Assembly: GCA_038056395.1 (NCBI GenBank)
Contig: JBBUFS010000003.1
Location: 4,344-68,343, forward strand
Direction: 5' to 3'
From: Patescibacteria group bacterium
GTDB taxonomy: Bacteria; Patescibacteriota; Minisyncoccia; Phycocordibacterales; WO2-35-19
Length of the DNA: 64,000 nt
The translations under genes were made by a program, and so were the position numbers. The notes under the pieces are model-generated. The model was given only the letters and a program-made list of their open reading frames with translations. It was not told the origin of the DNA and did not search any database. This document shows, piece by piece, positions 2,803 through 62,719 of the stretch; positions within the stretch are counted from its first letter, which is position 1; each line of letters begins with the position of its first letter.

Positions 2803-3336
2803 CGGTTCTTTGGTACACAGGATCTCAGTGAGTTCCTTGTGCCATTTAAGCACATACCCAGAAAATGATGACGAATTGGTACAATCATTATCGCCGTAGT
2901 CAATTAGGCAATATTCCGATGGGCTCTTTTTGACAAAGTTTTCGCCCGTGTAGTAATGCGGATCCAATTCGCCGATATCTCCACCCGTGTTCCTTCCCAT
3001 CTCTCCAACCACGCGCAACCAATCCTTAATGGTGAGTTCTTCTCCAAACTCTCTTTTCTGTATGTTTACCAAACCAAACAGAGAAAAGTATGTTGGGGCA
3101 AGGAAGGGCGCGCGGCAGCGTCTCCAACATTTATACTCAGTTTGGTTCTGGTGTAGCCCTTTGCAGAACGCAACCCAGTCGGTTTTGACAATTCTGGAGA
3201 TGGAATTCAAATCACCCCTAAGCAGTCTCTTGACGACGGTTTTGATTATCCATCCAAACGGTTCAGCGCTCGGGAACTTTAACACCAGATTTCCGATCAA
3301 CAAAACAGCACGAGTACTTCCGTATACTATTTTCAA
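2788..3336 (-). CDS. GC-rich orphan protein, possibly a minimal protein-kinase-like (RIO/Kdo-kinase-like) fold
   Basis: 182 aa, TTG start with AGGAGA 5 nt upstream. Motif order VLK ... NQTEYKCW ... DPHYYTGENF ... CLIDYGD resembles kinase Lys / alphaC Glu / catalytic loop / DFG-like. No search was possible. Confidence 0.55.
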   Translation of the reverse strand: MKIVYGSTRAVLLIGNLVLKFPSAEPFGWIIKTVVKRLLRGDLNSISRIVKTDWVAFCKGLHQNQTEYKCWRRCRAPFLAPTYFSLFGLVNIQKREFGEELTIKDWLRVVGEMGRNTGGDIGELDPHYYTGENFVKKSPSEYCLIDYGDNDCTNSSSFSGYVLKWHKELTEILCTKEPPPVV

Positions 3337-3393
3337 TCTGTTCTCCTATCTAAACAGAAAATAACACAAAAAGTATTATTTAGTCAAATATTC

Positions 3394-3513
3394 TAACCTC
3401 TCCCCGTCCCTCTCCTTACCTTAAGGAGGGGGTGACTACTATTTATTATTCAGCCGTTGAGTGGAACTTGTTGCGCGGTTCCCTCCTTAAAATAAGGAGG
3501 GTTAGGGAGGTTA
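3394..3513. repeat. Degenerate closed member of the cloverleaf repeat family (outer stem plus two CCCTC..GAGGG hairpins around a 48-nt insert)
   Basis: TAACCTC (3394-3400) pairs with GAGGTTA (3507-3513). Hairpins CCCTCTCCTT/AAGGAGGGGG at 3408-3432 and CCCTCCTTA/TAAGGAGGG at 3481-3501. Confidence 0.6.
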
Positions 3514-4195: not shown

Positions 4196-4238
4196 GCCCC
4201 CTTCCCCTTAGCAAGGGGAAGGGTTTGGGGATGAGGTC
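4196..4238. repeat. Fragment of the cloverleaf repeat family (central hairpin plus 3' outer-stem-like GGGGATGAGGT)
   Basis: CCCTTCCCCTTagcAAGGGGAAGGG followed by TTTGGGGATGAGGT; compare 42407-42431 and 42467-42482. Confidence 0.65.
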
Positions 4239-4246
4239 TTTTGTAT

Positions 4247-4258: not shown

Positions 4259-7200
4259 ATGAAATTTACTCATCTCCATACCCACTCCCACTATTCCCTG
4301 CTTCAAGCTTTACCTAAGATTCCAGAGCTTATAGAAGCGGCTAAAAAGGAGGAGATGGAAGCTTTGGCGCTGACAGATAACGGCAATATGTACGGCGCTA
4401 TTGAATTTTATAAGGAGTGCAAAAAAGCCGGCATTAAGCCGATTATTGGCGTGGACGCTTATCTGGCCGGCCGCACCCGATTTGACAAACAGGCCGGTAT
4501 TGATAAAGATAGATTCAGATTGATTTTGCTTTGCAAAAATGAAACAGGTTATAAAAATCTTTTGAAATTAGTGTCAGCATCTTATTTGGAAGGATTTTAT
4601 TATAAACCGCGTATTGATTTTGAAATTTTAAAGAAGTATTCGGAAGGACTCATCTGCATTTCTTCGTCCTGGAGCGGGGACATTTCCACCGCTTTAAGAA
4701 ATAAAAATGTGGAACTGGCCAGAGAGTTGGTGCAGAAATATAAAAAAATTTTTGATGGAAATGATGATGGCGATTTTTACATTGAAATCACTAAACATCC
4801 GGAGCTGTCTGGACATAACGAACATATGGATATCTTGGCAGAGTTTGCCAAAGAAAATTCAATTGGAATCGTGGCTGCTCACGATGTTTATTATATCGCG
4901 CCGGAAGACAAAGAAGCTAAAAATACTTTAATGGCGGTAAGTCAAGGTGCTCCGCAGAGTAATGGCGAAAGGGGTGCTTGGGATAATGAAGATGAGGATT
5001 TCTCTTTTCTCTCGGAAGCTGAAATTGGGGAAAGGTTTAAGAATATGCCAGAAGCAATTTTCAACAACCATAAAATTACCGCTCTTTGCAATTTGGAATT
5101 GGAATTAGGTAGATGGTCTTTCCCCGACTTGAAGGTGGAGTCTGGAAAGAGTTATAACGAAGAATTGCGCGATCTAGCTTACAGCGGATTGGAAAAACGC
5201 GGCCTGCCGCGGAGCAAAGAGGTGATAGAAAGACTGGAATACGAGCTCAATATCATAGTAACAAAAGGGTATTGCCCGTATTTTTTGGTGGTGGCTGACT
5301 TAATGAATTACGCTCATGAGCACGGCATATTAACAAACATAAGAGGATCGGTCTCTGGATCGCTGGCAACCTACGCTTCCAATATTACAAATATAAACCC
5401 GTTGGAATACGAAATACCTTTTGAAAGATTTTTGAATCCGGACCGGCCCTCCGCGCCGGACATAGATATAGATTTTGCGGATAACAGGCGCGATGAAATA
5501 GTGGAATACGTCAAGAAAAAATATGGCGAGGATAAAGTAGCCCAAATAGGCACTTTTGGCACTATGATGGCTCGCGGCAGTGTAAGGGACACGGCTCGGG
5601 CTCTTGGTTTTGCCTACACCATTGGAGACAAAATAGCCAAACTTATCCCCATGGGCCAGCAAGGTTTTCCTATGACCATTGATCGCGCTCTAGCTGAAGT
5701 GCCGGAACTGGCAGAGCTTTATAAAAAAGACGCCGATTCAAAAAAAATAATAGATATGGCCAAAAAAATTGAAGGCTGCGCCAGACATATCGGAGTGCAT
5801 GCGGCTGGCGTAGTTATCAGCCCAACCGATTTAACCGACTTTACTCCTCTTCAATATGATCCAAAAGGCGAAGGCAAAATAATTACTCAATATGATATGT
5901 ACAGTGTAGATGAAAACGGCGCCGGGCTTTTGAAATTTGATTTTTTGGGGCTAAAAAATCTTTCCATTATTGCGGCCACTATTGCTTTAGCTAAAAAAAC
6001 AAAAGAGACAGAAATAGATTTGGACAAAATGCCGATTGACGATAAGAAAACATTTGAAATGTTAGCTCGGGGGGAAACAGAGGATCTTTTTCAGCTCAAT
6101 GGCGACGGTATGACCCGATTTTTGGTAGAACTCAAGCCTACTTCTATACACGATATAAACGCTATGGTAGCCTTGTACCGTCCGGGACCGATGCAATTTA
6201 TTCCAAATTATATAGAACGCAAGCATGATCCTTCCAAAATCACCTATCTTGATCCGGCCCTGGAGCCAATACTCAAAAAAACTTATGGCATTTTGGTTTA
6301 TCAGGATGATTTGTTGATGATGGCCCATAATTTAGCCGGCTATACTTGGGGCGAGGTTGATAAATTTCGCAAAGCGGTCGGCAAAAAAATTCCCAAAGAA
6401 ATGCAGGAACAAAGAGAGAAGTTCATAAAAGGTTGTATGGAATATTCAAAGTGGAATGAAAAGAAAGCCAAAGAAATTTGGAGCTGGATAGAACCCTTTG
6501 CCGCTTATGGTTTTAACAAAGCCCACTCTGTTTCCTATGGGAGAGTGGCTTATCAAACCGCCTATCTCAAAGCAAATTTTCCCGGAGAATATATGACTTC
6601 GGTGCTTTCGACTGAATCAGGAGATACCGAAAAAGTGGCTCAGTCCGTAGCCGAATGCAAAAGAATGAACATTGAAATTTTGCCACCGGATATAAATGAA
6701 AGTTATTCTGACTTTACTTTAATCAAAAAGGAAGTAAAAGATAGTAAAGAAACCATAAGATTTGGATTAACGACAATAAAGAATTTTGGCGAAGGAATTT
6801 CACACACAATAACTGCTGAAAGAAAAGAAAGAGGCAAATTCAAATCAATGGAAGATTTTTTAATCAGAATTCAGGACAGAAATTTAAACAAAAAATCTTT
6901 GGAAGCTTTGGTCAAGTCCGGCGCTTTTGATAATTTTGGAGAAAGGGGTAAAATGCTCGCTAACACGGAAACATTTTTGGAATACAGCAAAGAATCAGCT
7001 GGCAATAAAGACCAGGAATCTCTCTTTTCCTCTGTTGCTGTTTCAGGAGACTATTCTCCTATTCATTTAACGCCTGCAAATCCGGCTACTCCGGCTGAAA
7101 AACTAGCTTGGGAAAAAGAACTTTTGGGTTTGTATGTTTCAGGGCATCCATTGGAGCAATTCAAGGAAAAACTCTTGGCTCAAAAAAACACGATTAAAAA

Positions 7201-7477: not shown

Positions 7478-9313
7478 ATGGCAAAAACTGAACAAATTGA
7501 AAAAATTAGGCATTCCCTGTCGCACCTTATGAGTATGGTGGTGCAGGAGTCGTATCCGGAGGTGAGACTGGGAGTGGGACCAGTTATTGAAAATGGTTTT
7601 TACCAAGATTACGACTTACCTGAGATAATTAGTCCAGAAATTTTGCCGAAGTTGGAAAAGAGAATTAAGGAGCTCATAAAAGAAAATATAAAATTTGAAC
7701 AGCATGATATGGAATTTGATGAAGCTCTCAAATTTTACAAAAATGATCCTTATAAAACAGAACTTATAAATAATTTGAAAGATGGAGAAACCCCTTCGAC
7801 TGCGCTCAGGGCAGGCAAAGTCAGTTTTTATAAATCAGGAGAATTTGATAATCTTTGCGCTGGTCCTCATGTTGGTTCTACCAAAGAAATTGACCCGCAA
7901 GCTTTTAAACTTACTCACATCGCAGGCGCTTATTGGCGCGGCGATGAAAAAAATAAGATGCTCACCCGCATTTACGGACTGGCTTTTGAATCAAAAGAGG
8001 AGCTTGAAGAACACTTAAAAAATCAGGAAGAGGCTAAAAAAAGAGACCATAGAAAATTGGGCAAAGAATTAGATCTTTTTCATATTGACGAAGTTGTTGG
8101 TTTGGGACTTCCTTTATGGCACCCCAAAGGCGCTTTGTTGTGGAGAATTATTGAAAATTTTTGGTACGAAGAGCATTTAAAAAATGGCTACGGTTTAGTA
8201 AGAACACCTCATATAGGCAACAGAGTGCTTTGGGAAACTTCGGGACATTGGGGTTTTTATAACAAATCAATGTATCCACCCATGGAAGCTGGGCAAAGTC
8301 TGGAAGAAAAACAACAAAACAAAAAAGCGGAAAACTCTGAAGAATATTTGCTTAAGCCCATGAATTGCCCTTTTCATGTTCAAATTTATAAAAATAATCC
8401 TAAATCCTATAGAGAACTTCCCCTCCGCTGGGCTGAATGCGGCACGGTTTATAGATTTGAAAAGAAAGGAGAGCTTTCGGGTTTGGTTAGAGTCAGAGGT
8501 TTTACTCAAGATGATGCCCATATTATATGCAGAAAGGATCAGGTTGAGGATGAGCTTAAAAAAGTTATAGATTTTATTCTTTTCATTTATAAATCTTTTG
8601 GATTTGATATTGATAAAGTGAAAGTTTATCTTTCTTTGCGAGATCCAAAAAATAAAGATAAATATGCCGGCAATGACGCTGGTTGGGAATTTACAGAAAA
8701 TGTTTTAAGAGAAGTAGCCAAAGATAAAAAACTTGATTTCAAAGAAGAATTAGGAGAAGCGGCTTTTTATGGACCCAAACTTGATTTCAAAATTAAAGAT
8801 GTTTTGGGTAGAGAATGGCAATGTTCCACTCTCCAATTTGATTTTAATCTGCCCGAAAGATTTAATATGGTTTTTACAAACAATGAAGGCAAAGAAGAAA
8901 GACCTTATATGCTTCATCGCGCCTTGTTTGGTTCTTTTGAAAGATTCATAGGACTTTTGATAGAACACTATGCCGGCAACTTTCCTCTTTGGTTATCGCC
9001 TGTGCAGGTTAAAGTAATACCGGTGCGCGAATCGCACAACGCTTACGCGCAAGAAGTTTATGATTTGTTAAAAGAAAACGGCATTCGCGCCGAAGTTGAT
9101 TTGGAAGATGAAAATTTGGGTAAAAAAGTCCGCGCCGCCAAAAACGAAAAAATTCCTTATTGGATAGTTCTTGGTGACAAAGAAATTGAATCAAAAGAAG
9201 TCACTGTTGAATCCCGAAGCGCCAGCGAAGGTGCTGACAAAGGAAGCATTGGGCTCATGTCTCCTCAAAAATTCCTAGAACTTCTCCAAAAAGAAATAAA
9301 AGATAAAAAATAA
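7478..9313 (+). CDS. thrS: Threonyl-tRNA synthetase (no N-terminal TGS domain)
   Basis: 611 aa; begins in the editing/SAD domain (HSLSHLM), class II core (PMNCPFH, RVRGFTQDDAHI) and anticodon-binding domain. Confidence 0.92.
   Translation: MAKTEQIEKIRHSLSHLMSMVVQESYPEVRLGVGPVIENGFYQDYDLPEIISPEILPKLEKRIKELIKENIKFEQHDMEFDEALKFYKNDPYKTELINNLKDGETPSTALRAGKVSFYKSGEFDNLCAGPHVGSTKEIDPQAFKLTHIAGAYWRGDEKNKMLTRIYGLAFESKEELEEHLKNQEEAKKRDHRKLGKELDLFHIDEVVGLGLPLWHPKGALLWRIIENFWYEEHLKNGYGLVRTPHIGNRVLWETSGHWGFYNKSMYPPMEAGQSLEEKQQNKKAENSEEYLLKPMNCPFHVQIYKNNPKSYRELPLRWAECGTVYRFEKKGELSGLVRVRGFTQDDAHIICRKDQVEDELKKVIDFILFIYKSFGFDIDKVKVYLSLRDPKNKDKYAGNDAGWEFTENVLREVAKDKKLDFKEELGEAAFYGPKLDFKIKDVLGREWQCSTLQFDFNLPERFNMVFTNNEGKEERPYMLHRALFGSFERFIGLLIEHYAGNFPLWLSPVQVKVIPVRESHNAYAQEVYDLLKENGIRAEVDLEDENLGKKVRAAKNEKIPYWIVLGDKEIESKEVTVESRSASEGADKGSIGLMSPQKFLELLQKEIKDKK
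7793..7820. repeat. Family A repeat inserted in frame in thrS (encodes PSTALRAGK)
   Basis: CCTTCGACtgcgCTCAGGGCAGGCA versus CCTTCGACaagCTCAGGGCAGGCA at 40933-40956 and ACTTCGACaagCTCAGGACAGGCA at 61753-61776. Confidence 0.75.
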
Positions 9314-13026: not shown

Positions 13027-14271
13027 ATGCATATTGTTTCAGAATCCATCACCTATATTTTTCTTTTTATTGCTCTTTATTTGGAAGTGTTCTTTTTGAT
13101 TACTTATTTTGAATTTGGGGATGCTCCCTTCGCTAAAGCTTTGGAGGATCAAAGAAAGAATCCAAAAAAATTGCCCAGCGTTTCTATTATTGTGCCCGTT
13201 TGGAACGAGGAAACTACTGTCCTGAAAACAATTTTTTCTCTACTTAAACTTACTTATCCAAAGGATAAGTTGTCTATTTTCATAGTAGACGATGGTAGCA
13301 CCGACAAAACTTGGAATGTCATCCAAAGATTTGTATGTAACAAACAAATAAAACTTTTAAGAAAAGAAAATGGCGGCAAATATACAGCTCTAAATTATGC
13401 TTTAGAATTCGTGAACACCGAGCTAGTCGGTTGTCTGGACGCTGATTCGTTTGTCCATCCGGAAGCTTTAAAAAGAATTGTCGCTCAATTTGATAATGAA
13501 GAAATAATGGCCGTTACTCCTTCCATAAAAATATTTGAGCCGAAAGGTTTGCTCGGACTTATCCAGAAAGCCGAATATATGTTCGGTATTTTTCTGAGAA
13601 AAGTCTTTTCGGACTTGAATGCCGTTTACATAGCGCCCGGTCCCTTTTCAATTTTCAAAAAATCTGTTTTTGAAAAAATAGGAGGTTACAAGCATTCCTA
13701 CAATACCGAAGATATGGAAATTGCCATGCGAATGCAGAGAAACAACATGAAAATCGGCAATGCCCACAGTGCTTATGTCTATACCGTCGCCCCGGCCGGC
13801 TTGAGAGCTCTCTATAAACAGCGCTTGCGATGGGTTTATGGCTTTATTAAAAATGCCATTGATTATCGGGATATGTTTTTCAAGCCGCAATATGGCAATT
13901 TGGGGATGGTTGTTTTGCCAGCTGCCGGCTTTTCCGTTCTCTCCACCATGTATTTTTTTGGCGCCATGGTTTTAAGCTGGTTTGAAACTTTAACTACTCA
14001 AATAATCAAAATTTATACTGTTGGCATTTCTTTTAACAGTTTTAATTTTGATTTATTTTATGTGAATACCGACATTTTGGTTTTTGTTTCTTTGATTGCG
14101 ATTTTGGGAACGCTTTTGATAATCGTGACTTCCAGGAAGTTGGCGGAAGAAAAAAATAAATTCGGCCTGGACAGCATCCTTTTTTTGGCGCTTTATACCT
14201 TTATTTGCCCTATTTGGATAAGCAAAGCGGTTTACAATGTAGTCTTCTCTAAAAACACAAAATGGAGGTGA
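13027..14271 (+). CDS. Processive family-2 glycosyltransferase (PgaC/NodC/cellulose-synthase-like), integral membrane
   Basis: 414 aa; DDGSTD, DAD, TED and QRLRW (QxxRW) motifs with N- and C-terminal TM segments. Confidence 0.8.
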   Translation: MHIVSESITYIFLFIALYLEVFFLITYFEFGDAPFAKALEDQRKNPKKLPSVSIIVPVWNEETTVLKTIFSLLKLTYPKDKLSIFIVDDGSTDKTWNVIQRFVCNKQIKLLRKENGGKYTALNYALEFVNTELVGCLDADSFVHPEALKRIVAQFDNEEIMAVTPSIKIFEPKGLLGLIQKAEYMFGIFLRKVFSDLNAVYIAPGPFSIFKKSVFEKIGGYKHSYNTEDMEIAMRMQRNNMKIGNAHSAYVYTVAPAGLRALYKQRLRWVYGFIKNAIDYRDMFFKPQYGNLGMVVLPAAGFSVLSTMYFFGAMVLSWFETLTTQIIKIYTVGISFNSFNFDLFYVNTDILVFVSLIAILGTLLIIVTSRKLAEEKNKFGLDSILFLALYTFICPIWISKAVYNVVFSKNTKWR

Positions 14272-24381: not shown

Positions 24382-25368
24382 ATGGATTTTATTTCCATCG
24401 GCGATATCACCACTGATGCTTTTATTCGGCTGAAAGACGCTAAAATTATTTGTGACCCCGGCGGCAAAAAATGCGAATTGGCTTTAAGATTTGGTGATAA
24501 AGTGCCTTATGAGTTTGTGGAAGAAGTAAGAGCAGTCGGCAATAGCGCCAACGCCGCGGTTTGCGCCGCCAGATTGGGGCTTGATTCGGCCATGGTCACG
24601 AATGTCGGCGATGACCATAATGGCCACGAATGCATCGCTACCCTCCGCAAAAACGGCGTGGCGAGCTATTTTGTTTCTGTCCAAAAAGATAAGGAAACTA
24701 ATTATCACTATGTTTTATGGTTTGAAGAAGACCGCACCATTTTGGTTAAACATCACGAATATGATTACAAACTGCCTGATATTGGTGTGCCAAAATGGAT
24801 TTATCTTTCTTCCATCGGAGAAAACTCTTTGGAATATCATAAACAAATTGAAGAATATTTAAGAAAAAACCAAGAAGTAAAATTTGCTTTTCAGCCCGGC
24901 ACTTTTCAGATTAAAATGGGAATTGAAAACCTGAAGGATTTATATAGTCGCTGTGATATATTTTTTTGCAATATAGAGGAAGCTAAAAAAATTTTAAATA
25001 AACCAGACGAATCAGATGTTAAGAATTTACTGAGAGAAATGCATAATATAGGTCCTAATGTTGTAGTTATCACCGATGGTCCCAAAGGCGCTTACGCCTA
25101 TGATGGTTATGAAGGATTTTTTATGCCGCCTTTCCCCGATGCCAAACCTCCTTACGACCGCACCGGCGCGGGGGATGCTTTTTCTGCCACTTTTACCTCA
25201 GCCATTGCCTTGGATAAATCTTTATTTGATGCATTTTTGTGGGCTCCGGTCAATTCAATGTCCGTTGTCCAATATGTCGGCGCCCAAAAAGGCCTACTTT
25301 CTCAAGAAGACATTCTAAAATGGCTTTCCCAAGCTCCGCAGGATTATAGGCCGCAGAAGATTATGTAA
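24382..25368 (+). CDS. PfkB-family carbohydrate kinase
   Basis: ISIGDITTDAF..., DRTGAGDAF anion-hole motif near the C-terminus. Confidence 0.85.
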   Translation: MDFISIGDITTDAFIRLKDAKIICDPGGKKCELALRFGDKVPYEFVEEVRAVGNSANAAVCAARLGLDSAMVTNVGDDHNGHECIATLRKNGVASYFVSVQKDKETNYHYVLWFEEDRTILVKHHEYDYKLPDIGVPKWIYLSSIGENSLEYHKQIEEYLRKNQEVKFAFQPGTFQIKMGIENLKDLYSRCDIFFCNIEEAKKILNKPDESDVKNLLREMHNIGPNVVVITDGPKGAYAYDGYEGFFMPPFPDAKPPYDRTGAGDAFSATFTSAIALDKSLFDAFLWAPVNSMSVVQYVGAQKGLLSQEDILKWLSQAPQDYRPQKIM

Positions 25369-25384
25369 CTCACTCCACTTTTTC

Positions 25385-25883
25385 GACCCCACCCCGAATG
25401 CCTTACGGCATTCTGCCCCTCACCTTGCGAAGGTGAGGGGAAAAATTAAAACCAAAATAACTTTTAATTTTATCCAAAACTTTTTCAATATCATTTTCAA
25501 CCTCATTATTTTGAAATCTTAAAACTTTATAATCAAGTTCTCTAAAATATTTATCTCTAATCTCATCATATTCTTTGGCTTCTTTTGTGTTATGTATTTC
25601 TCCGTCTAATTCAACTATTAATTTCTTTTGTGGGCAATAAAAATCCAAAATGTAACCTCCTATACTGTGCTGTCTTTTGAATTTATAACCCAGTTTTTCG
25701 TGTCTCAATTCAAACCATAATATTTCTTCTGTTTTTGTTTGATTTTTTCTTAATTCTTTTCTTCTTTCTTTAAGAACCTCATTGTTGTGAATAAGTTTAG
25801 ACATTTTGATTTTTGTTCCCTTCTTATCCCCTCACCTTCGCAAGGTGAGGGGTAGTTCCGCTTTAGCGGAACGGGGTGGGGTC
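25385..25883 (-). mobile_element. Composite palindromic element carrying a DUF559 nuclease gene (cloverleaf repeat split around an ORF)
   Basis: Outer arms GACCCCACCCC (25385-25395) and GGGGTGGGGTC (25873-25883). Hairpins at 25396-25413, 25416-25440, 25828-25852 and 25855-25872. Same module order as the solo element at 42375-42463. Confidence 0.65.
25403..25804 (-). CDS. DUF559 (Vsr/restriction-endonuclease-like) domain protein
   Basis: 133 aa; EEILWFELR...LGYKFKRQHSIGGYILDFYCPQKKLIVELDGEIH typical DUF559. The last about 13 aa (SPHLRKVRGRMP) are encoded by the flanking repeat. Confidence 0.8.
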   Translation of the reverse strand: MSKLIHNNEVLKERRKELRKNQTKTEEILWFELRHEKLGYKFKRQHSIGGYILDFYCPQKKLIVELDGEIHNTKEAKEYDEIRDKYFRELDYKVLRFQNNEVENDIEKVLDKIKSYFGFNFSPHLRKVRGRMP

Positions 25884-25887
25884 GTTC

Positions 25888-26880
25888 CTATTTTCTTTTT
25901 ATTACTCTTTCAATTGCCGCTTCTATACTTAAAACGCCCATACCATAATATTCAATCAGCTCGGAAGCAGTGCCGGATTGGCCAAATTGGTCATGAACGC
26001 CAATAAGTTCCATAGGCACCGGATAATTTTGAACCAAAACTTCGGCAATGGCAGAACCCAAACCGCCAACCACCTGATGTTCTTCCACGCTGACGATAGC
26101 TCCGGCTTCTTTGGCTAAATTTTTGATCGCTTCAAAATCAAGAGGCCTTATGCTTGAAATATTCAAAACTTTTATCGGGACGCCTTTTTGAGCAAAATTT
26201 TTGGCGGCCATTATTGCGTTATAAACCAAAGGTCCGGTTGCAATAATTCCAACTTGGGCGGTCATAGGAGGCGCATAAAAAATTGAGCTTTTACCTATTT
26301 CAAAAGGTGTTTCTCCCGTTGTTATTATAGGAGTTTTTTCTCTGGCTAAGCGAATATAAACTGGCTTATTTATTTTAACCGCTTCAACGATCGCTTTTTT
26401 AGCTTCAATGGCATCACAGGGAGAAAGCACAACCATATTCGGCAAAACTCGCATTAAAGCGATATCTTCTAGAGCTTGATGAGTTCCTCCGTCGGCTCCC
26501 ACCGAAACTCCGGTGTGACTGCCGACAATTTTAACCGGCCTGTCATTATAAGCGATGGTTGTTCTGATTTGTTCCCAATTTCTGCCCGGGCTAAATACAG
26601 CGTAAGAAGCAGCAAAGGGAATCTTACCCATAGCAGCCATGCCGCTGGCAATGGTCACTAAATTCTGTTCAGCCACACCAACTTGAACAAATCTTTCAGG
26701 ATATTTTCTGGCAAATAAATACATTTGGGTTGATTCATTCAAATCGGCGCAAAGCCCCACCACATTTTTGTTTTGATCTCCGGCCATAACTAACCCCTCG
26801 CCAAAGCCAACTCTTGTTGAAATTTTTTCTACATCCGCATCAAAAAGTTTTGTATTTAATTTTAAGTTTTGATTAAGCAT
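25888..26880 (-). CDS. Transketolase, C-terminal (pyrimidine-binding) subunit of split enzyme
   Basis: 330 aa; GFGEGL..., EQNLVTIASGMA, HQALEDIALMR. Confidence 0.9.
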   Translation of the reverse strand: MLNQNLKLNTKLFDADVEKISTRVGFGEGLVMAGDQNKNVVGLCADLNESTQMYLFARKYPERFVQVGVAEQNLVTIASGMAAMGKIPFAASYAVFSPGRNWEQIRTTIAYNDRPVKIVGSHTGVSVGADGGTHQALEDIALMRVLPNMVVLSPCDAIEAKKAIVEAVKINKPVYIRLAREKTPIITTGETPFEIGKSSIFYAPPMTAQVGIIATGPLVYNAIMAAKNFAQKGVPIKVLNISSIRPLDFEAIKNLAKEAGAIVSVEEHQVVGGLGSAIAEVLVQNYPVPMELIGVHDQFGQSGTASELIEYYGMGVLSIEAAIERVIKRK

Positions 26881-35792: not shown

Positions 35793-35816
35793 CCCCTGAT
35801 GGGCACCATCAAGGGG
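35793..35816. repeat. REP-like hairpin flanking the RAYT gene (left)
   Basis: CCCCTGATGGgcaCCATCAAGGGG; contains the RAYT stop codon. Confidence 0.75.
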
Positions 35817-36489
35817 ATTCAAACTCGGCATATTCAAGTTCGAGTTCAGAATGTTTTTTCTGCTGAATATTTTCAAAAGAATCTTCTACCATCTTCTTAT
35901 AACTACTGGGATCTTTAAGTTGATCTAAAATAATTTTGTTTTTACAAATTTTTTCAGAATTAATACTTAAATATTCTACATAACTACTCCACCGCCAACT
36001 AATGTCTTTTTTTATCAAGTTAGCAATTCTTGGATTTAAATGAATATAAGCAGAGAGCCACAATAAATATTCATTACTATCTATAAGTACAGATTTAAAT
36101 TGGTCCTGAAATAAAGAACCGACTCGATTGTATTTTAGATTGAAGTATTTTGAATAACTACTACACACTTTTAAAATAAGTCTGCTTACAGAAACATCGC
36201 TATTTTGTTTGATTAAAATATGAAAATGATTTGGCATCAAACAGTAGGTAATAAGCGAAAAAGATCCAGGTGGAAGCATTTTTCTGATGTATGGTGTGTG
36301 ACTTTTTCCTCGATAGACCTTATTTTTTAATTTGGAAACTTTCTTATTTGGAAATAAATTTTCTTTTAATCGATTAAAGAAAACATTAAAATCTTGTTCA
36401 TCTTTAAATATAGCCATCTTATCAACTCCACGATTATAGATATGGTAATAACAACCTGGTGCAAAATTCTTATAATCTCTGGTACCCAT
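35809..36489 (-). CDS. REP-associated tyrosine transposase (RAYT, IS200/Y1 HUH family)
   Basis: YHIYNRG..., HUH motif MPNHFHILIKQ, C-terminal RWSSYVEY Tyr motif. ATG 36489 is preferred (TATAAT 7 nt upstream); alternative ATG at 36498. Confidence 0.85.
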   Translation of the reverse strand: MGTRDYKNFAPGCYYHIYNRGVDKMAIFKDEQDFNVFFNRLKENLFPNKKVSKLKNKVYRGKSHTPYIRKMLPPGSFSLITYCLMPNHFHILIKQNSDVSVSRLILKVCSSYSKYFNLKYNRVGSLFQDQFKSVLIDSNEYLLWLSAYIHLNPRIANLIKKDISWRWSSYVEYLSINSEKICKNKIILDQLKDPSSYKKMVEDSFENIQQKKHSELELEYAEFESP

Positions 36490-36505
36490 GAAAAACATTA
36501 TAACT

Positions 36506-36530
36506 CCCCTTGATGGTGCCCATCAAGGGG
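36506..36530. repeat. REP-like hairpin flanking the RAYT gene (right, inverted copy)
   Basis: CCCCTTGATGGtgcCCATCAAGGGG; reverse complement of the left copy except for one extra A. Confidence 0.75.
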
Positions 36531-42312: not shown

Positions 42313-42357
42313 CCAGGGGGTGACCCTTGAAATGCCCCTGCCCCAAAGGGTCACCAC
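42313..42357. repeat. Family E hairpin repeat
   Basis: GGTGACCCTT (42319-42328) pairs with AAGGGTCACC (42346-42355). Second copy at 56641-56685. Confidence 0.7.
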
Positions 42358-42374
42358 CAACTTTTTTGTTTTTC

Positions 42375-42463
42375 CTACCTCACCCCGTTCCGCTAAAGCG
42401 GAACTGCCCCTCCCCTTTGCAAGGGGAGGGGCAATCCGACGCAAGTCGGATGGGGTGAGGTAG
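42375..42463. repeat. Solo cloverleaf (four-way-junction) GC-rich repeat
   Basis: 12-bp outer stem CTACCTCACCCC/GGGGTGAGGTAG encloses three hairpins: GTTCCGCtaaaGCGGAAC, CCCCTCCCCTTtgcAAGGGGAGGGG and ATCCGACgcaaGTCGGAT. Confidence 0.8.
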
Positions 42464-42505
42464 TAAGGGTTGGGGATGAGGTAGTAATATGATACAATAA
42501 ATTTT

Positions 42506-47007: not shown

Positions 47008-47039
47008 CCCTCCTCACTTTTTAATAAAAGTGGGGAGGG
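47008..47039. repeat. 14-bp GC-rich hairpin between the fibre-subunit gene and sipW
   Basis: CCCTCCTCACTTTTtaatAAAAGTGGGGAGGG; related to the CCCCTC..GAGGGG hairpins. Confidence 0.65.
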
Positions 47040-47075
47040 GTTAGAAGCTTCAAAATCTATAACTGATTTATCCGG

Positions 47076-55157: not shown

Positions 55158-56534
55158 ATGCCAGAAATAAAATCGCATATAAGAATTCCGCCGCATAATT
55201 TGGAGGCCGAGAAAGCGCTACTTGGTTCGGTGATGCTGAGGCCGGAAGTGATGTTTGAAATTACGGACTTGGCGCACGCGGTTTCTTTTTATTCAGAAAA
55301 GCATCGTCTTATTTTTGAGACAATGTTGGATCTTTTTTCAAAAAGAAGTCCGACAGATTTATTATCTGTTTCTGCAAGATTGAAGGAAAAAAATTTGCTA
55401 GACGAAATAGGCGGCAACAGTTATTTGGGCGAGCTGGTCAATTCGGTGCCCTCGGCAGCCAATGCAAATTATTACGCCCAGATAATTCAAAAAAAACATA
55501 TCGCCAGAAATTTGATTGGCGCCGGGGATTTTGTGTCTTCTTTGGGGTATGACGAAGCCGAAGAATTGGAAAATCTCTTGGATCAAGCCCAAAAGAAAAT
55601 TTATGATGTGACAAACATTTCAAGCATACATAAATTTGTAGAACTTAAAGAAGAATTAACGGAGGCATGGGAAAGACTTGATCGATTGCATAATTCAGGA
55701 GACGGCTTACGAGGTGTGCCAACCGGTTTTAAAGAGCTTGACGAAAAACTTTCCGGTTTGCAAAAATCTGATTTGATAATTTTAGCGGCGCGACCTTCCG
55801 TTGGTAAAACTGCTCTGGCTCTTGATATTGCTCGCCAGACAGCCGTTTATCACAATACTCCGGTTGGCATTTTTTCATTGGAAATGAGTTCCCAGCAATT
55901 AGTTGATAGAATGCTTGCTTCCCAATCAAATGTTGACGCCTGGAAATTGCGTACAGGAAAATTGATCAGAGAAGACGATTTTTCAGCTATTCGCCAATCC
56001 TTGGATGTCCTTTCCAAAGCGCCCATTTTTATAGACGATCAGCCGGGCAACAATATTTTGAAAATGCGCTCAGTGGCCAGACGGCTCAAAAATGAAAAAG
56101 GGTTGGGACTGATTATTGTAGATTATCTGCAGTTGATGGCCACTAATAAAAATTATGATTCTATGGTCAATCAAGTAACCGAAATTTCCCGCTCTTTAAA
56201 AAATTTGGCACGCGAACTTGAAGTGCCTGTCATGGCCCTTTCCCAGCTTTCCCGCGCCATTGAACAGAGAGGTGGCAAGCCAAAGCTCTCCGACCTGCGC
56301 GACTCCGGTTCCATTGAACAGGATGCCGATGTTGTTATGTTTATACACCGCGAAGATAAACAAAAAAATACAAACGAAGCCGAAAAAACAAACATAGCCG
56401 AAATTTTGATTGAAAAGCATCGCAACGGCGCCACCGGCCGTGTTGAACTTTTCTTTAACGAAAAAAAGGCCTCATTCCTGCCCCTTGAAAAAGCCCAATT
56501 CACCGGCGCCGAAAGCGAGTTTAGAGAGTTTTAA
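55158..56534 (+). CDS. dnaB: Replicative DNA helicase DnaB
   Basis: PPHNLEAEKALLGSV, Walker A ARPSVGKT, SQLSRAIEQR. Confidence 0.95.
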   Translation: MPEIKSHIRIPPHNLEAEKALLGSVMLRPEVMFEITDLAHAVSFYSEKHRLIFETMLDLFSKRSPTDLLSVSARLKEKNLLDEIGGNSYLGELVNSVPSAANANYYAQIIQKKHIARNLIGAGDFVSSLGYDEAEELENLLDQAQKKIYDVTNISSIHKFVELKEELTEAWERLDRLHNSGDGLRGVPTGFKELDEKLSGLQKSDLIILAARPSVGKTALALDIARQTAVYHNTPVGIFSLEMSSQQLVDRMLASQSNVDAWKLRTGKLIREDDFSAIRQSLDVLSKAPIFIDDQPGNNILKMRSVARRLKNEKGLGLIIVDYLQLMATNKNYDSMVNQVTEISRSLKNLARELEVPVMALSQLSRAIEQRGGKPKLSDLRDSGSIEQDADVVMFIHREDKQKNTNEAEKTNIAEILIEKHRNGATGRVELFFNEKKASFLPLEKAQFTGAESEFREF

Positions 56535-56535
56535 C

Positions 56536-56593
56536 GACCCCACCCCGTTCTGCTAAAGCAGAACTGCCCCTCACCTTGCGAAGATGAGGGTGG
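56536..56593. repeat. 5' half of a cloverleaf-family element (outer arm plus two hairpins, no closing arm)
   Basis: GACCCCACCCC GTTCTGCtaaaGCAGAAC tg CCCCTCACCTTgcgAAGATGAGGG. Confidence 0.7.
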
Positions 56594-56596
56594 AAG

Positions 56597-56640
56597 TCAA
56601 AGGTGCCCTTTGAGTTTTGAGACGTATGGTGTAATTTTTT
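56597..56640. repeat. Copy of the 44-nt rnhB-internal segment
   Basis: TCAAAGGTGCCCTTTGAGTTTTG...GTAATTTTTT; see 3797-3840. Confidence 0.8.
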
Positions 56641-56685
56641 CCAGAGGATGACCCTTGAAGAATTTTGTCCCAAAGGGTCACTCTC
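56641..56685. repeat. Family E hairpin repeat (copy 2)
   Basis: CCAGAGGATGACCCTTGAAgaattttgtcccAAAGGGTCA; compare 42313-42357. Confidence 0.7.
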
Positions 56686-56720
56686 AAAATTTTTGTGTGA
56701 TTTTATGCTATATTTTAAAT

Positions 56721-61945: not shown

Positions 61946-62719
61946 TTATTTTATTGAATCTTCTATTTTGTAATTGCCTACTCGCGTACGGCGGATGGAA
62001 AGGGTAGTAGCACCACAGCCGAGAGTGTTGCCCATATCGTTTACTAGCCCTCTAATATAAGTACCAGATGATACATAGGCGCTGAATTTACCGATAAAAT
62101 ACCCCACCCCTCGCTTCGCGTGGCCCTCCCCTTGGTCAGGAGAGGGAAAACCAAAAAGCACCTGTTTCCACAAAGTTAAAATTTCGTGCTGTCTGAAATC
62201 ACCTGTTACTTTTGAGATATCCATTAAAAGTCTACTGAAAAGTTCTTTGCTGTTTAATAAATCTAATCCATGAAATTGAATTTTGTGGATAGTGATATTT
62301 TTAATGGGAACATCCTCAGAATCTTTTTTCTTCCGAGACTTTCTAGAAGCAATCATCTTTGATGAATAAAATGGATATTCCTGTTCTCTTTCGCCTTCAT
62401 AAATCATTGTAACTCTTCTGACATCACTCTCCAAAAGTTCATGCAATTTTTCCACTCGCATTATTTTTCCTAAAATATCATACGAATCAGTGGCAAAGCC
62501 GAAAATGGAAACAAAATCGTATTCTTTATCAAGCCCCAAAAATTCTTCTTTCCTTTTTACATCTTCGCCACTCGCCATAAGCAAGACTCCTTCGGCTAAC
62601 GGGTCAAGCCGCCCCATATAAGTCATTTTTTGCCCTTTCAATTCAGGCGTGGCTTTGGCAAACCTTTGGATACACTCAAGCGGTGTCTCTCCGCGATTTT
62701 TATAGAGATTGTATATCAT
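61946..62719 (-). CDS. truB: tRNA pseudouridine-55 synthase TruB
   Basis: MGRLDPLAEGVLLMA catalytic Asp motif; 257 aa. Confidence 0.88.
   Translation of the reverse strand: MIYNLYKNRGETPLECIQRFAKATPELKGQKMTYMGRLDPLAEGVLLMASGEDVKRKEEFLGLDKEYDFVSIFGFATDSYDILGKIMRVEKLHELLESDVRRVTMIYEGEREQEYPFYSSKMIASRKSRKKKDSEDVPIKNITIHKIQFHGLDLLNSKELFSRLLMDISKVTGDFRQHEILTLWKQVLFGFPSPDQGEGHAKRGVGYFIGKFSAYVSSGTYIRGLVNDMGNTLGCGATTLSIRRTRVGNYKIEDSIK
62102..62147. repeat. Cloverleaf-family fragment in frame in truB (encodes PSPDQGEGHAKRGVG)
   Basis: CCCCACCCC tcgcttcgcgtgg CCCTCCCCttggtcaGGAGAGGG; outer-arm motif plus CCCTC hairpin. Confidence 0.65.

Follow-up and report, generated by a model that had tools for sequence, protein, structure and literature searches.

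A Vsr-like DUF559 nuclease gene between inverted copies of a dispersed palindromic repeat in Patescibacteria

The stretch analysed here (the window) is 64,000 nucleotides (nt) of contig JBBUFS010000003.1, from a Patescibacteria (Zambryskibacteria-like) population of Hainich groundwater. At 25383-25885, between the genes tkt and pfkB, it carries two inverted copies of one unit of about 58 nt around an intact-looking gene of the DUF559 family. On the evidence of its sequence and of related loci fetched for comparison (labelled L001-L116), we take this locus to be a cassette of an apparently active Vsr-like (DUF559) endonuclease gene, held between inverted units that are dispersed in related Patescibacteria.

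Each unit consists of an arm (GACCCCACCCC), a variable 7-bp hairpin and an invariant, central hairpin of the form CCCCTCACCTT-NNN-AAGGTGAGGGG. An earlier note on this DNA, made from the letters alone, had described seven modules on the minus strand of 25883-25385, and all of them are present, base for base and where it placed them. It had also taken the central hairpin to be duplicated around the gene; this needs amending, because the second copy has the loop cgc and is thus the reverse complement of the first, which makes the element two inverted units. On the plus strand the downstream unit reads cGACCCCACCCC, hairpin GAATGCCttacGGCATTC, CCCCTCACCTTgcgAAGGTGAGGGG. The outer arms are complementary at 13/13 positions, and around the central hairpins, with their loops gcg and cgc, complementarity is 94% over 32-nt arms. 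In the window, 8 copies of the 11-mer CCCCTCACCTT stand against 0.66 expected, and 4 copies of the arm motif against 0.30. The upstream unit begins 4 nt past the tkt stop codon, the downstream unit 16 nt past the stop of the convergent pfkB gene.

The open reading frame (ORF) between the units matches the Pfam family DUF559 (PF04480) at residues 12-114 (119.2 bits against a cut-off of 20.6, E=9e-35), as the note had recognized. Because DUF559 homologues are 115-120 aa long, its last ~16 codons and stop are read-through into the downstream repeat; the note had already seen that the repeat supplies the gene end, which it put at about 13 codons. Relative to L001, a 2-nt indel has removed the native stop. 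The A-rich leader before the ATG is the counterpart of the A-rich tail behind lone units, as judged from tail composition in 85 units. With 58-nt inverted units at both ends the cassette has terminal inverted repeats, as insertion sequences (IS) and miniature inverted-repeat transposable elements (MITEs) do, but a Pfam profile search found no transposase domain in it, and no direct repeats lie outside the arms at the window, L001 or L002. Target-site duplication was rejected as a candidate, since the central hairpins are inverted (gcg/cgc) in every cassette, with no direct repeat beyond the arms. The 64-kb window holds this single DUF559 gene, with no further copies or fragments, against about 8 units.

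The same bracket recurs around DUF559 elsewhere. At least 13 related cassettes bracketed by inverted units (window, L001, L002, L003, L045, L054 twice, one of these a pseudogene, L057, L075, L080/L114, L091, L111, L112 and L116) lie at five or more genomic sites, and their DUF559 proteins are 59-91% identical to one another. The loops of the central hairpins are oriented gcg/cgc in every one, and in all of them a hairpin lies upstream of DUF559, 13-36 nt from the ATG. Among 80 metagenome loci found by the hairpin alone (see below), the 7 that have a close inverted pair of exact hairpins all hold DUF559 within it (72-91% identical to that of the window), with the second hairpin 268-820 nt past its stop, except for one 243-nt non-coding pair. 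A covariance model of the unit adds two more cassettes, both in L054, one with a DUF559 pseudogene. L001, L002 and L003, found in genomes by protein similarity, show the bracket, and so do 4/4 protein-only look-ups that were independent of the hairpin (L111, L112, L114 and L116), L112 and L116 with variant hairpins and arms. The earlier note had proposed to ask whether DUF559 paralogues are bracketed by the same arms; every clade member examined is. Its idea of a nuclease and structured-repeat pair, organized like REP-associated tyrosine transposases (RAYTs) and repetitive extragenic palindromes (REPs), therefore stands as far as the pairing goes, which these loci support well. The cloverleaf is not the repeating unit, however; its half is, most copies being lone halves right behind the stop codons of unrelated genes.

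The gene between DUF559 and the distal unit varies: it may be an ANT(2'')-like nucleotidyltransferase (NTase), a helix-turn-helix (HTH) protein, DUF1653, a TIM barrel or an unknown, and some cassettes, including that of the window, have none. The NTase (PF10706) is the second gene at two different junctions (L002 3365-3853 and L116 2865-3374). The two NTases are only 39.5% identical, and DUF559 plus NTase may be either an ancient module of two genes or the product of repeated capture. The window cassette may also be a deletion derivative of a DUF559+NTase cassette, its tail tttggttttaattttt resembling the end of the L002 NTase gene; but the tail aligns equally well just past the L001 DUF559 stop, and the L116 NTase end gives no match. 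The 14-kb contig L054 holds three family elements (5448-6206, 8047-8914 and 13797-13927), one with a truncated DUF559 pseudogene and an 89-aa membrane ORF, another with an in-frame fusion of DUF559 and a second ORF (231 aa, as in P0094) and the third a gene-less doublet.

A metagenome scan for the exact central hairpin returned 80 loci, whose flanks were compared. About 60 of these hairpin-selected loci contain a lone unit beside unrelated genes, about 10 a full cloverleaf, in which two overlapping inverted units share one hairpin, and 7 two inverted units less than 1.3 kb apart; lone units outnumber DUF559 cassettes about ten to one. The consensus unit runs cGACCCCACCCC, a 7-bp hairpin with tetraloop, TG, the invariant hairpin with loop GCG and an A-rich tail. 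Full cloverleaves at L027, L060, L077, L093 and L098 form a subfamily with the same side hairpins at different loci. Phage carriage was rejected, the exact hairpin having zero occurrences in 2.9 million viral contigs.

Across 49 distinct units, the variable hairpin shows double substitutions at all seven pairs and 93.6% of its cells are paired, equally on both strands, with G:U in 2 of 343 cells. Such a near absence of G:U is easier to reconcile with a DNA palindrome, legible on both strands, than with an RNA helix. Tetraloops of GNRA/UUCG type occur in it. Even between orthologous loci this hairpin differs at 4-5 of 7 stem positions, always fully compensated and without G:T pairs, while arm and central hairpin stay invariant (alignment of 49 units from the window and L001-L104). 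The pattern suggests module swapping between copies or palindrome-generating repair, not stepwise compensatory mutation.

The units are placed closely behind genes. A co-directional ORF ends at most 30 nt before the unit in 48 of 85 cases, 36 of them with the unit -2 to +6 nt from the stop. The arm usually starts 1-6 nt past a co-directional stop codon (for example, window 25884-25888 and 56534-56536), and in six of the 85 units a TGA stop overlaps the GA of the arm; this placement is far tighter than compact spacers alone would seem to demand. Both orientations relative to genes occur. That the flanks are ordinary intrinsic terminators, which the earlier note had named as fatal to its idea, was rejected: neither tkt nor DUF559 nor pfkB has a hairpin with a T-run in its sense direction, and A-runs, not T-runs, come after the cassette hairpins. 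A known RNA family was rejected too, as only tRNAs reach Rfam thresholds in the window, and 25350-25920 has no Rfam match even at E up to 1. In L004 (about 2830-2940), the assembly shows a run of N in precisely the place of a DUF559 cassette's upstream unit, and the arm is duplicated on either side; unit repeats seem to break or confuse metagenome assemblies.

Other copies in the window were scored with the covariance model (R1), built from the collected units (Table 1). It recovers four of the related copies that the earlier note had listed, at 42375-42463, 56536-56593, 4196-4238 and 62102-62147. A fifth, the supposed closed copy at 3394-3513, gives some match but at a score that leaves it a degenerate candidate relative; weak matches fall at 3393-3431 and 47010-47044. 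The gene-less cloverleaf is made of two overlapping inverted units with one common central hairpin (CCCCTCCCCTTtgcAAGGGGAGGGG) and the arms CCTACCTCACCCC and GGGGTGAGGTAGG, and its DNA fold has -44.3 kcal/mol (z=-12.9). The lone unit stands directly behind the stop of the gene at 55158-56534.

Table 1. Parts of the DUF559 cassette and further copies of the repeat unit in the window (R1, covariance model of the unit)
Feature	Position	Strand	Score or remark
Upstream (5') repeat unit, arm cGACCCCACCCC at 25884-25873	25828..25885	minus	R1 84.2 bits, E=1e-21
Arm GACCCCACCCC	25883-25873	minus	upstream unit
Variable hairpin GTTCCGCtaaaGCGGAAC	25872-25855	minus	upstream unit
Invariant hairpin CCCCTCACCTTgcgAAGGTGAGGGG	25852-25828	minus	upstream unit
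A-rich leader gataagaagggaacaaaaatcaaa, 23 nt, from invariant hairpin to DUF559 ATG	25805..25827	minus	
DUF559 (Vsr-like PD-(D/E)xK) ORF, 133 aa as read	25403..25804	minus	Pfam PF04480
Conserved DUF559 protein, residues 1-117	25804-25454	minus	homologue length
Second central hairpin	25440-25416	minus	3' of conserved DUF559 part
Hairpin GAATGCCgtaaGGCATTC	25413-25396	minus	downstream side
Closing arm GGGGTGGGGTC	25395-25385	minus	downstream unit
Downstream (3') repeat unit, inverted relative to upstream	25383..25440	plus	R1 86 bits, E=4e-22
Gene-less full cloverleaf	42374..42464	plus	R1 66.9 bits (+), 72.4 bits (-)
Lone unit: arm, hairpin GTTCTGCtaaaGCAGAAC, central hairpin with one mismatch	56534..56591	plus	R1 74.1 bits
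Short variant unit CCCTTCCCCTTagcAAGGGGAAGGG ttt GGGGATGAGGTC	4199..4240	minus	R1 34.9 bits, E=5e-8
Diverged unit TACCCCACCCC ... CCCTCCCCTTggtcAGGAGAGGG	62098..62147	plus	R1 24.1 bits, E=4.5e-5
Degenerate candidate relative AACCTCTCCCC ... two CCCTCC-type hairpins ... GGGAGGTTAGG	3393..3513	plus	R1 12.3 bits, E=0.08

Cassette sites, five or more in number, include tkt|pfkB, pth|S1 and a Pyr_redox/ftsZ neighbourhood. The comparison of orthologous loci that the earlier note had suggested turned up an unsplit cloverleaf, or 'empty' site, with clearly orthologous flanks at the pth|S1 junction of L098; in L001, L002, L057, L075 and L111 the same junction is occupied by a cassette. Copies at two other sites share 85%, 83% and 82% identity with the window DUF559 (at tkt|pfkB); for copies at the same site the values are 73%, 71% and 67%, and for the tkt of these loci 80%, 82% and 68%. 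Judged by these identities, DUF559 similarity does not track genomic site. DUF559 with NTase is found at both junctions (L002, L116).

Turning to the protein, residues D54, E65, D67, H71 and D80 are invariant in 34 DUF559 sequences, and the AlphaFold model of the window DUF559 has a pLDDT (predicted local distance difference test) of 87. Searched with Foldseek, the model matches the DUF559 protein 3HRL best (E=3e-7), followed by the catalytic domain of the homing endonuclease I-Bth0305I (3R3P; E=9e-5, template modelling (TM) score 0.64/0.76, 25% identity); Vsr itself is distant (E=0.057), and RAP-domain mitoribosomal proteins are among the neighbours. I-Bth0305I is thus the closest structural relative that has been characterized; phmmer against PDB sequences detected no I-Bth0305I match. 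NGO0050 (PDB 3HRL) and Escherichia coli YcjD share the Pfam family, fold and conserved catalytic residues of the window DUF559. Vsr is the very-short-patch repair endonuclease, which acts on T:G mismatches alongside a cytosine methyltransferase, whereas no partner methyltransferase lies beside the window gene. Membership of a defence system was rejected, with only weak PADLOC matches to generic restriction and homing-endonuclease models. The DUF559/ycjD literature searched held nothing tying the family to repeats or mobility.

I-Bth0305I, which shares the Vsr-like catalytic domain, works as a homodimer and cuts a 14-bp pseudopalindrome in its middle (PMC3239194), and a central cut is what a central-hairpin target would require. 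By analogy, a DUF559 dimer on the palindrome CCCCTC...GAGGGG is plausible. EDxHD / I-Bth0305I enzymes are multidomain and reside in group I introns, inteins or fractured genes of phages (PMC3239194, PMC2677866), whereas the window DUF559 has one domain of 117 aa and stands by itself in an intergenic repeat between tkt and pfkB; no intron or intein context was found there.

The unit itself looks like a variant of a known repeat class, the intrastrand-triplex motifs named BoxC, PIT or TMECO, on which Bergler 1992 and Hoyne and Maher 2000 have reportedly also written. It shares with them a C-rich stem, a loop, a complementary G-rich stem and a second G-rich block that mirrors the first, as well as being intergenic, dispersed, of unknown function and linked to locus rearrangement. 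The published pattern reads CCCTCNCCC-N3-6-GGGNGAGGG-N3-GGGNGAGGG (Holder et al. 2015, PMC4666352). Such repeats form an intrastrand purine-motif triplex in vitro; their loci are more rearranged between E. coli strains, with no mobility gene found nearby and the function unknown, and PIT elements have neither promoter nor terminator activity in E. coli (PMC4666352). The window units do not match the pattern, having the stems CCCCTCACC/GGTGAGGGG and, in place of the 3 nt of the second loop (N3), about 20 nt that contain the variable 7-bp hairpin. Between the window arm and the hairpin's purine strand, 9-10 of 11 positions are compatible with purine-motif triads, and arm and hairpin variants co-vary (GGAGAAGGG with GGGATGAGG, GGAGAGGGG with GGGGTGAGG). 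A triplex-type layout, with the arm pairing with the hairpin purine strand, would account for lone units keeping an arm that lacks a complementary partner. The short variant at 4199..4240, which is without the variable hairpin, has a BoxC/TMECO-like layout, with 9/11 triads compatible. Unlike their E. coli counterparts, two Patescibacteria units often overlap into a cloverleaf. The published work on the class names no associated protein and does not mention DUF559 (PMC4666352), and a link between the two appears unreported in the literature searched.

Two further likenesses deserve comment. The G-rich strand of the unit has the same module order as Rfam whalefall-1 (RF01762): a CUCUCC-type hairpin, CA, a covarying hairpin and then AGGGUGAGGAC. 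Whalefall-1 is a candidate non-coding RNA that has no associated gene and whose one known source is a whale-fall metagenome (Weinberg et al. 2010, PMC2864571); it scores 26.9 bits, below its gathering threshold of 37, and only for 42376-42434, and where whalefall-1 was classed as RNA, the pairing statistics of the unit point to DNA. In organization, the cassette recalls REP/RAYT systems, in which a gene is flanked by cognate dispersed repeats (PMC3116915, PMC3337134). Here, too, a small gene is enclosed by inverted copies of a palindromic repeat, which is dispersed and far more numerous than the gene, and doublets (REPINs in those systems) and singlets occupy spacers, often just past genes. 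Unlike a RAYT, however, the protein is a PD-(D/E)xK nuclease and not an HUH Y1 transposase, which makes the known cut-and-rejoin mechanism impossible; some genomes have several DUF559 copies, a variable second gene lies inside the bracket, and the GTAG/CGTC tag of REPs is absent from the invariant columns of the 49 aligned units.

Beyond the Patescibacteria cassettes, a cross-phylum set was assembled by protein similarity only, from Gracilibacteria, Peribacteria, Bacteroidota, Balneolaceae, Alphaproteobacteria and Ruminococcus. Perfect GC-rich hairpins are present in 22 of 35 DUF559-adjacent spacers against 8 of 34 other spacers (p=0.0015). An 8-mer of GGGTGAGG type occurs 10 times near DUF559 against 1.03 expected and C/T-armed hairpins (CCCCTC...GAGGGG type) 21 times against 0.63, in 12 of 17 loci, although the P values of both are optimistic because the patterns were chosen after seeing the data. 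A Ruminococcus metagenome-assembled genome (L019) has a perfect 51-nt inverted repeat, composed of two hairpins and TGAGGGATTGTT, around a DUF559 gene whose product is 43% identical to that of the window (2938-2988 and 3427-3477); the perfect identity of the repeats suggests a recent event.

In E. coli K-12, ycjD (L109, NC_000913 1351196-1351800; also L110) ends inside a C-rich hairpin, and a TMECO/BoxC element that matches the published pattern exactly lies about 170 nt away. A partial duplicate of the gene's own 3' end and the TMECO both lie downstream. In 3343 of 5426 complete E. coli genomes (about 62%), this ycjD segment stands in place of the eefRABCD operon, an indel polymorphism. The TMECO element has a median of 16 copies per E. 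coli genome; in a spread sample of 60 genomes, those with ycjD have 11-25 matching places (median 19) and those without 1-18 (median 9), a correlation confounded by phylogroup.

How nuclease and repeat would act on each other we infer from these sequence patterns. The explanation we favour, with a confidence that stops somewhat short of even, is free-standing homing of DUF559 into a multi-copy repeat target after a break at the hairpin. DUF559, probably as a dimer, would recognize the C-rich palindrome CCCCTC...GAGGGG or its folded form and break the DNA there. After resection both 3' tails would end in CCCCTCACCTT; each could then enter one of the pair of inverted units that an occupied copy offers and serve there as a primer for inward synthesis, and the nuclease gene with its neighbouring content would be copied into the broken repeat. 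The same breaks, when repaired from other units, would give rise to second-gene capture, shuffling of the variable hairpin and the known locus instability, and gene-less cloverleaves and lone units would be targets and decay products.

Several points weigh against such homing. The lone units that make up ~60 of the 80 loci, by unrelated genes and typically 1-6 nt past a stop, are not explained by homing alone. Because the central hairpin is self-complementary, deletion between its copies would also regenerate a cloverleaf, and empty and occupied sites thus give no direction of gain or loss. Strain-level presence/absence was rejected, there being no such polymorphism among contigs with identical DUF559 or tkt protein, all of which are occupied. 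Variable hairpins beside different cassettes are not shared, which leaves no visible co-conversion tract. Four inverted-unit cassettes (L058, L078, L083 and L087) are without DUF559, and no Pfam family was found in the cargo of such cassettes. The 117-aa protein lacks the large DNA-binding domain of I-Bth0305I, and no published activity of any stand-alone DUF559 was found in the literature searched. RAYT-like transposases are encoded in the same genomes. Finally, the cross-phylum motifs were defined post hoc, and the E. coli copy numbers carry the phylogroup confounding described above.

Alternatively, the units could be fragile sites whose non-B DNA itself breaks or stalls replication, any accessory gene then accumulating there and DUF559 being a common small gene of selfish or defence type that lands among them with no particular biochemical tie to the repeats. 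We regard this as unlikely. It accords with the rearrangement of TMECO/BoxC loci between E. coli strains in the absence of a nearby mobility gene (PMC4666352), with the heterogeneity of the second genes and the existence of DUF559-less cassettes, and with the repeated occupation of pth|S1 and tkt|pfkB by different contents, the window having a RAYT-like gene at pth|S1. Such a hotspot does not explain, however, why DUF559 is the constant member, always on the same side, in the same orientation and with 13-36 nt between hairpin and ATG, whereas the other gene changes from cassette to cassette, nor why the same hairpin type lies beside DUF559 in distant phyla with otherwise different repeats.

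We find it quite improbable that the system is a RAYT/REP-like replicator, in which a mostly vertically kept DUF559 disseminates the units, the cloverleaf corresponding to a REPIN-like doublet and lone units to decaying singlets. A gene flanked by inverted cognate repeats with about ten times more gene-less copies dispersed, a cloverleaf subfamily whose side hairpins recur at different loci as if copied whole, one DUF559 per 64 kb against about 8 units and the higher median of matching places in ycjD-carrying E. coli all speak for it. However, nucleases of the PD-(D/E)xK kind make no covalent intermediate and are unable to rejoin DNA; dissemination would therefore need host repair, and the replicator model then collapses into homing. 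Furthermore, some contigs have several DUF559 copies (in L054, three family elements within 9 kb), unlike single-copy RAYTs, DUF559 lineages move between sites, and E. coli lineages without ycjD still have 10-18 copies.

A possible mobilizer that the earlier note had left unconsidered is encoded in the window itself. The pth|S1 junction (35793-36529), instead of the cassette or cloverleaf of its relatives, holds a 106-aa ORF and a Y1_Tnp gene (35809-36498, minus strand; 229 aa, Pfam E=1e-9) whose best NCBIfam match, REP-associated tyrosine transposase, reaches 45 bits and stays below the family cut-off. That such a Y1 (IS200/RAYT-like) transposase mobilizes REP-like units in trans, with the DUF559 cassette as a passenger between two of them, we consider doubtful, though it is still a rival to be reckoned with. 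The gene is bracketed by inverted 25-nt hairpins (CCCCTTGATGGtgcCCATCAAGGGG) that share the 11+3+11 format and the CCCCT...AGGGG foot of the central hairpin, and homologues are present in 5 other distinct fetched loci (L001, L053, L056, L058 and L086; L057 and L025 are duplicates of L001 and L086 and were excluded). But the Y1-flanking hairpin is confined to its two places in the window and absent from about 780 kb of related loci. Each Y1 gene examined has different hairpins of its own and none is flanked by the cloverleaf unit, so the signature that links RAYTs to REPs is missing, as is the GTAG/CGTC tag.

Least probable, and in our view very unlikely, are transcribed structures, whether whalefall-1-like non-coding RNAs, stabilizers of 3' untranslated regions, insulators or DUF559 operators, with the nuclease perhaps acting on RNA as related eukaryotic RAP-domain proteins may: close placement behind co-directional stops, the whalefall-1 architecture (judged likely RNA by its discoverers), RAP-domain proteins among the fold neighbours and GNRA/UUCG-type tetraloops fit this, but an RNA helix under selection would not usually combine G:U scarcity with equal pairing of both strands, no terminator with a U-tract can be read in the sense direction, units face either way with respect to genes, PIT elements are inactive as promoters and terminators in E. 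coli (PMC4666352), and the Rfam match is below threshold and absent for the copies at 25385-25883.

Homing of DUF559 into the unit would invite a wider proposal, which we put forward tentatively, as possible and on balance doubtful: that stand-alone DUF559/YcjD proteins are the missing trans-acting partners of BoxC/PIT/TMECO repeats throughout bacteria, which they would, as nucleases specific for a structure or a palindrome, break, spread into, shuffle and multiply, causing the instability of these loci. Two old unknowns would then explain each other. DUF559 is among the most widespread uncharacterized nuclease families and includes E. coli YcjD, and a structure has been solved for the family without a function; BoxC/PIT/TMECO repeats, known since 1992, form triplexes in vitro and mark unstable loci, with no protein or mobility function tied to them. 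The result would be a nuclease-driven replicator distinct from transposase-based elements and from intron- or intein-borne homing genes, and the combination of a PD-(D/E)xK nuclease with host repair would be a third mode of repeat maintenance beside HUH transposases (REP/RAYT) and IS/MITE pairs. In E. coli K-12, a direct test of such action would involve a single gene (ycjD) and 23 TMECO sites. Reduced Patescibacteria genomes, for their part, carry active-looking selfish cassettes, recurrently at the same two housekeeping junctions.

Two other repeat families adjoin the units. One, at 42313-42372 and 56642-56700 of the window, is a long, terminator-like hairpin (GGTGACCCTTGAA...AAGGGTCACC) followed by a T-run; it adjoins the unit arm in many related loci (for example, L034, L067, L084 and L094), and these mosaic spacers of terminator-like hairpin and arm resemble the bacterial interspersed mosaic elements (BIMEs) of enterobacteria. 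The other is a hairpin of the form GTCAAAGG(G/T)(C/G)CCCTTTGA(C/G), found in L001 (5584-5611 and about 6290), where it flanks a RAYT-like Y1 gene on both sides and is probably, to judge from this arrangement, the cognate REP of that transposase; its window copy (56598-56616) lies right behind the lone unit at 56534-56591.

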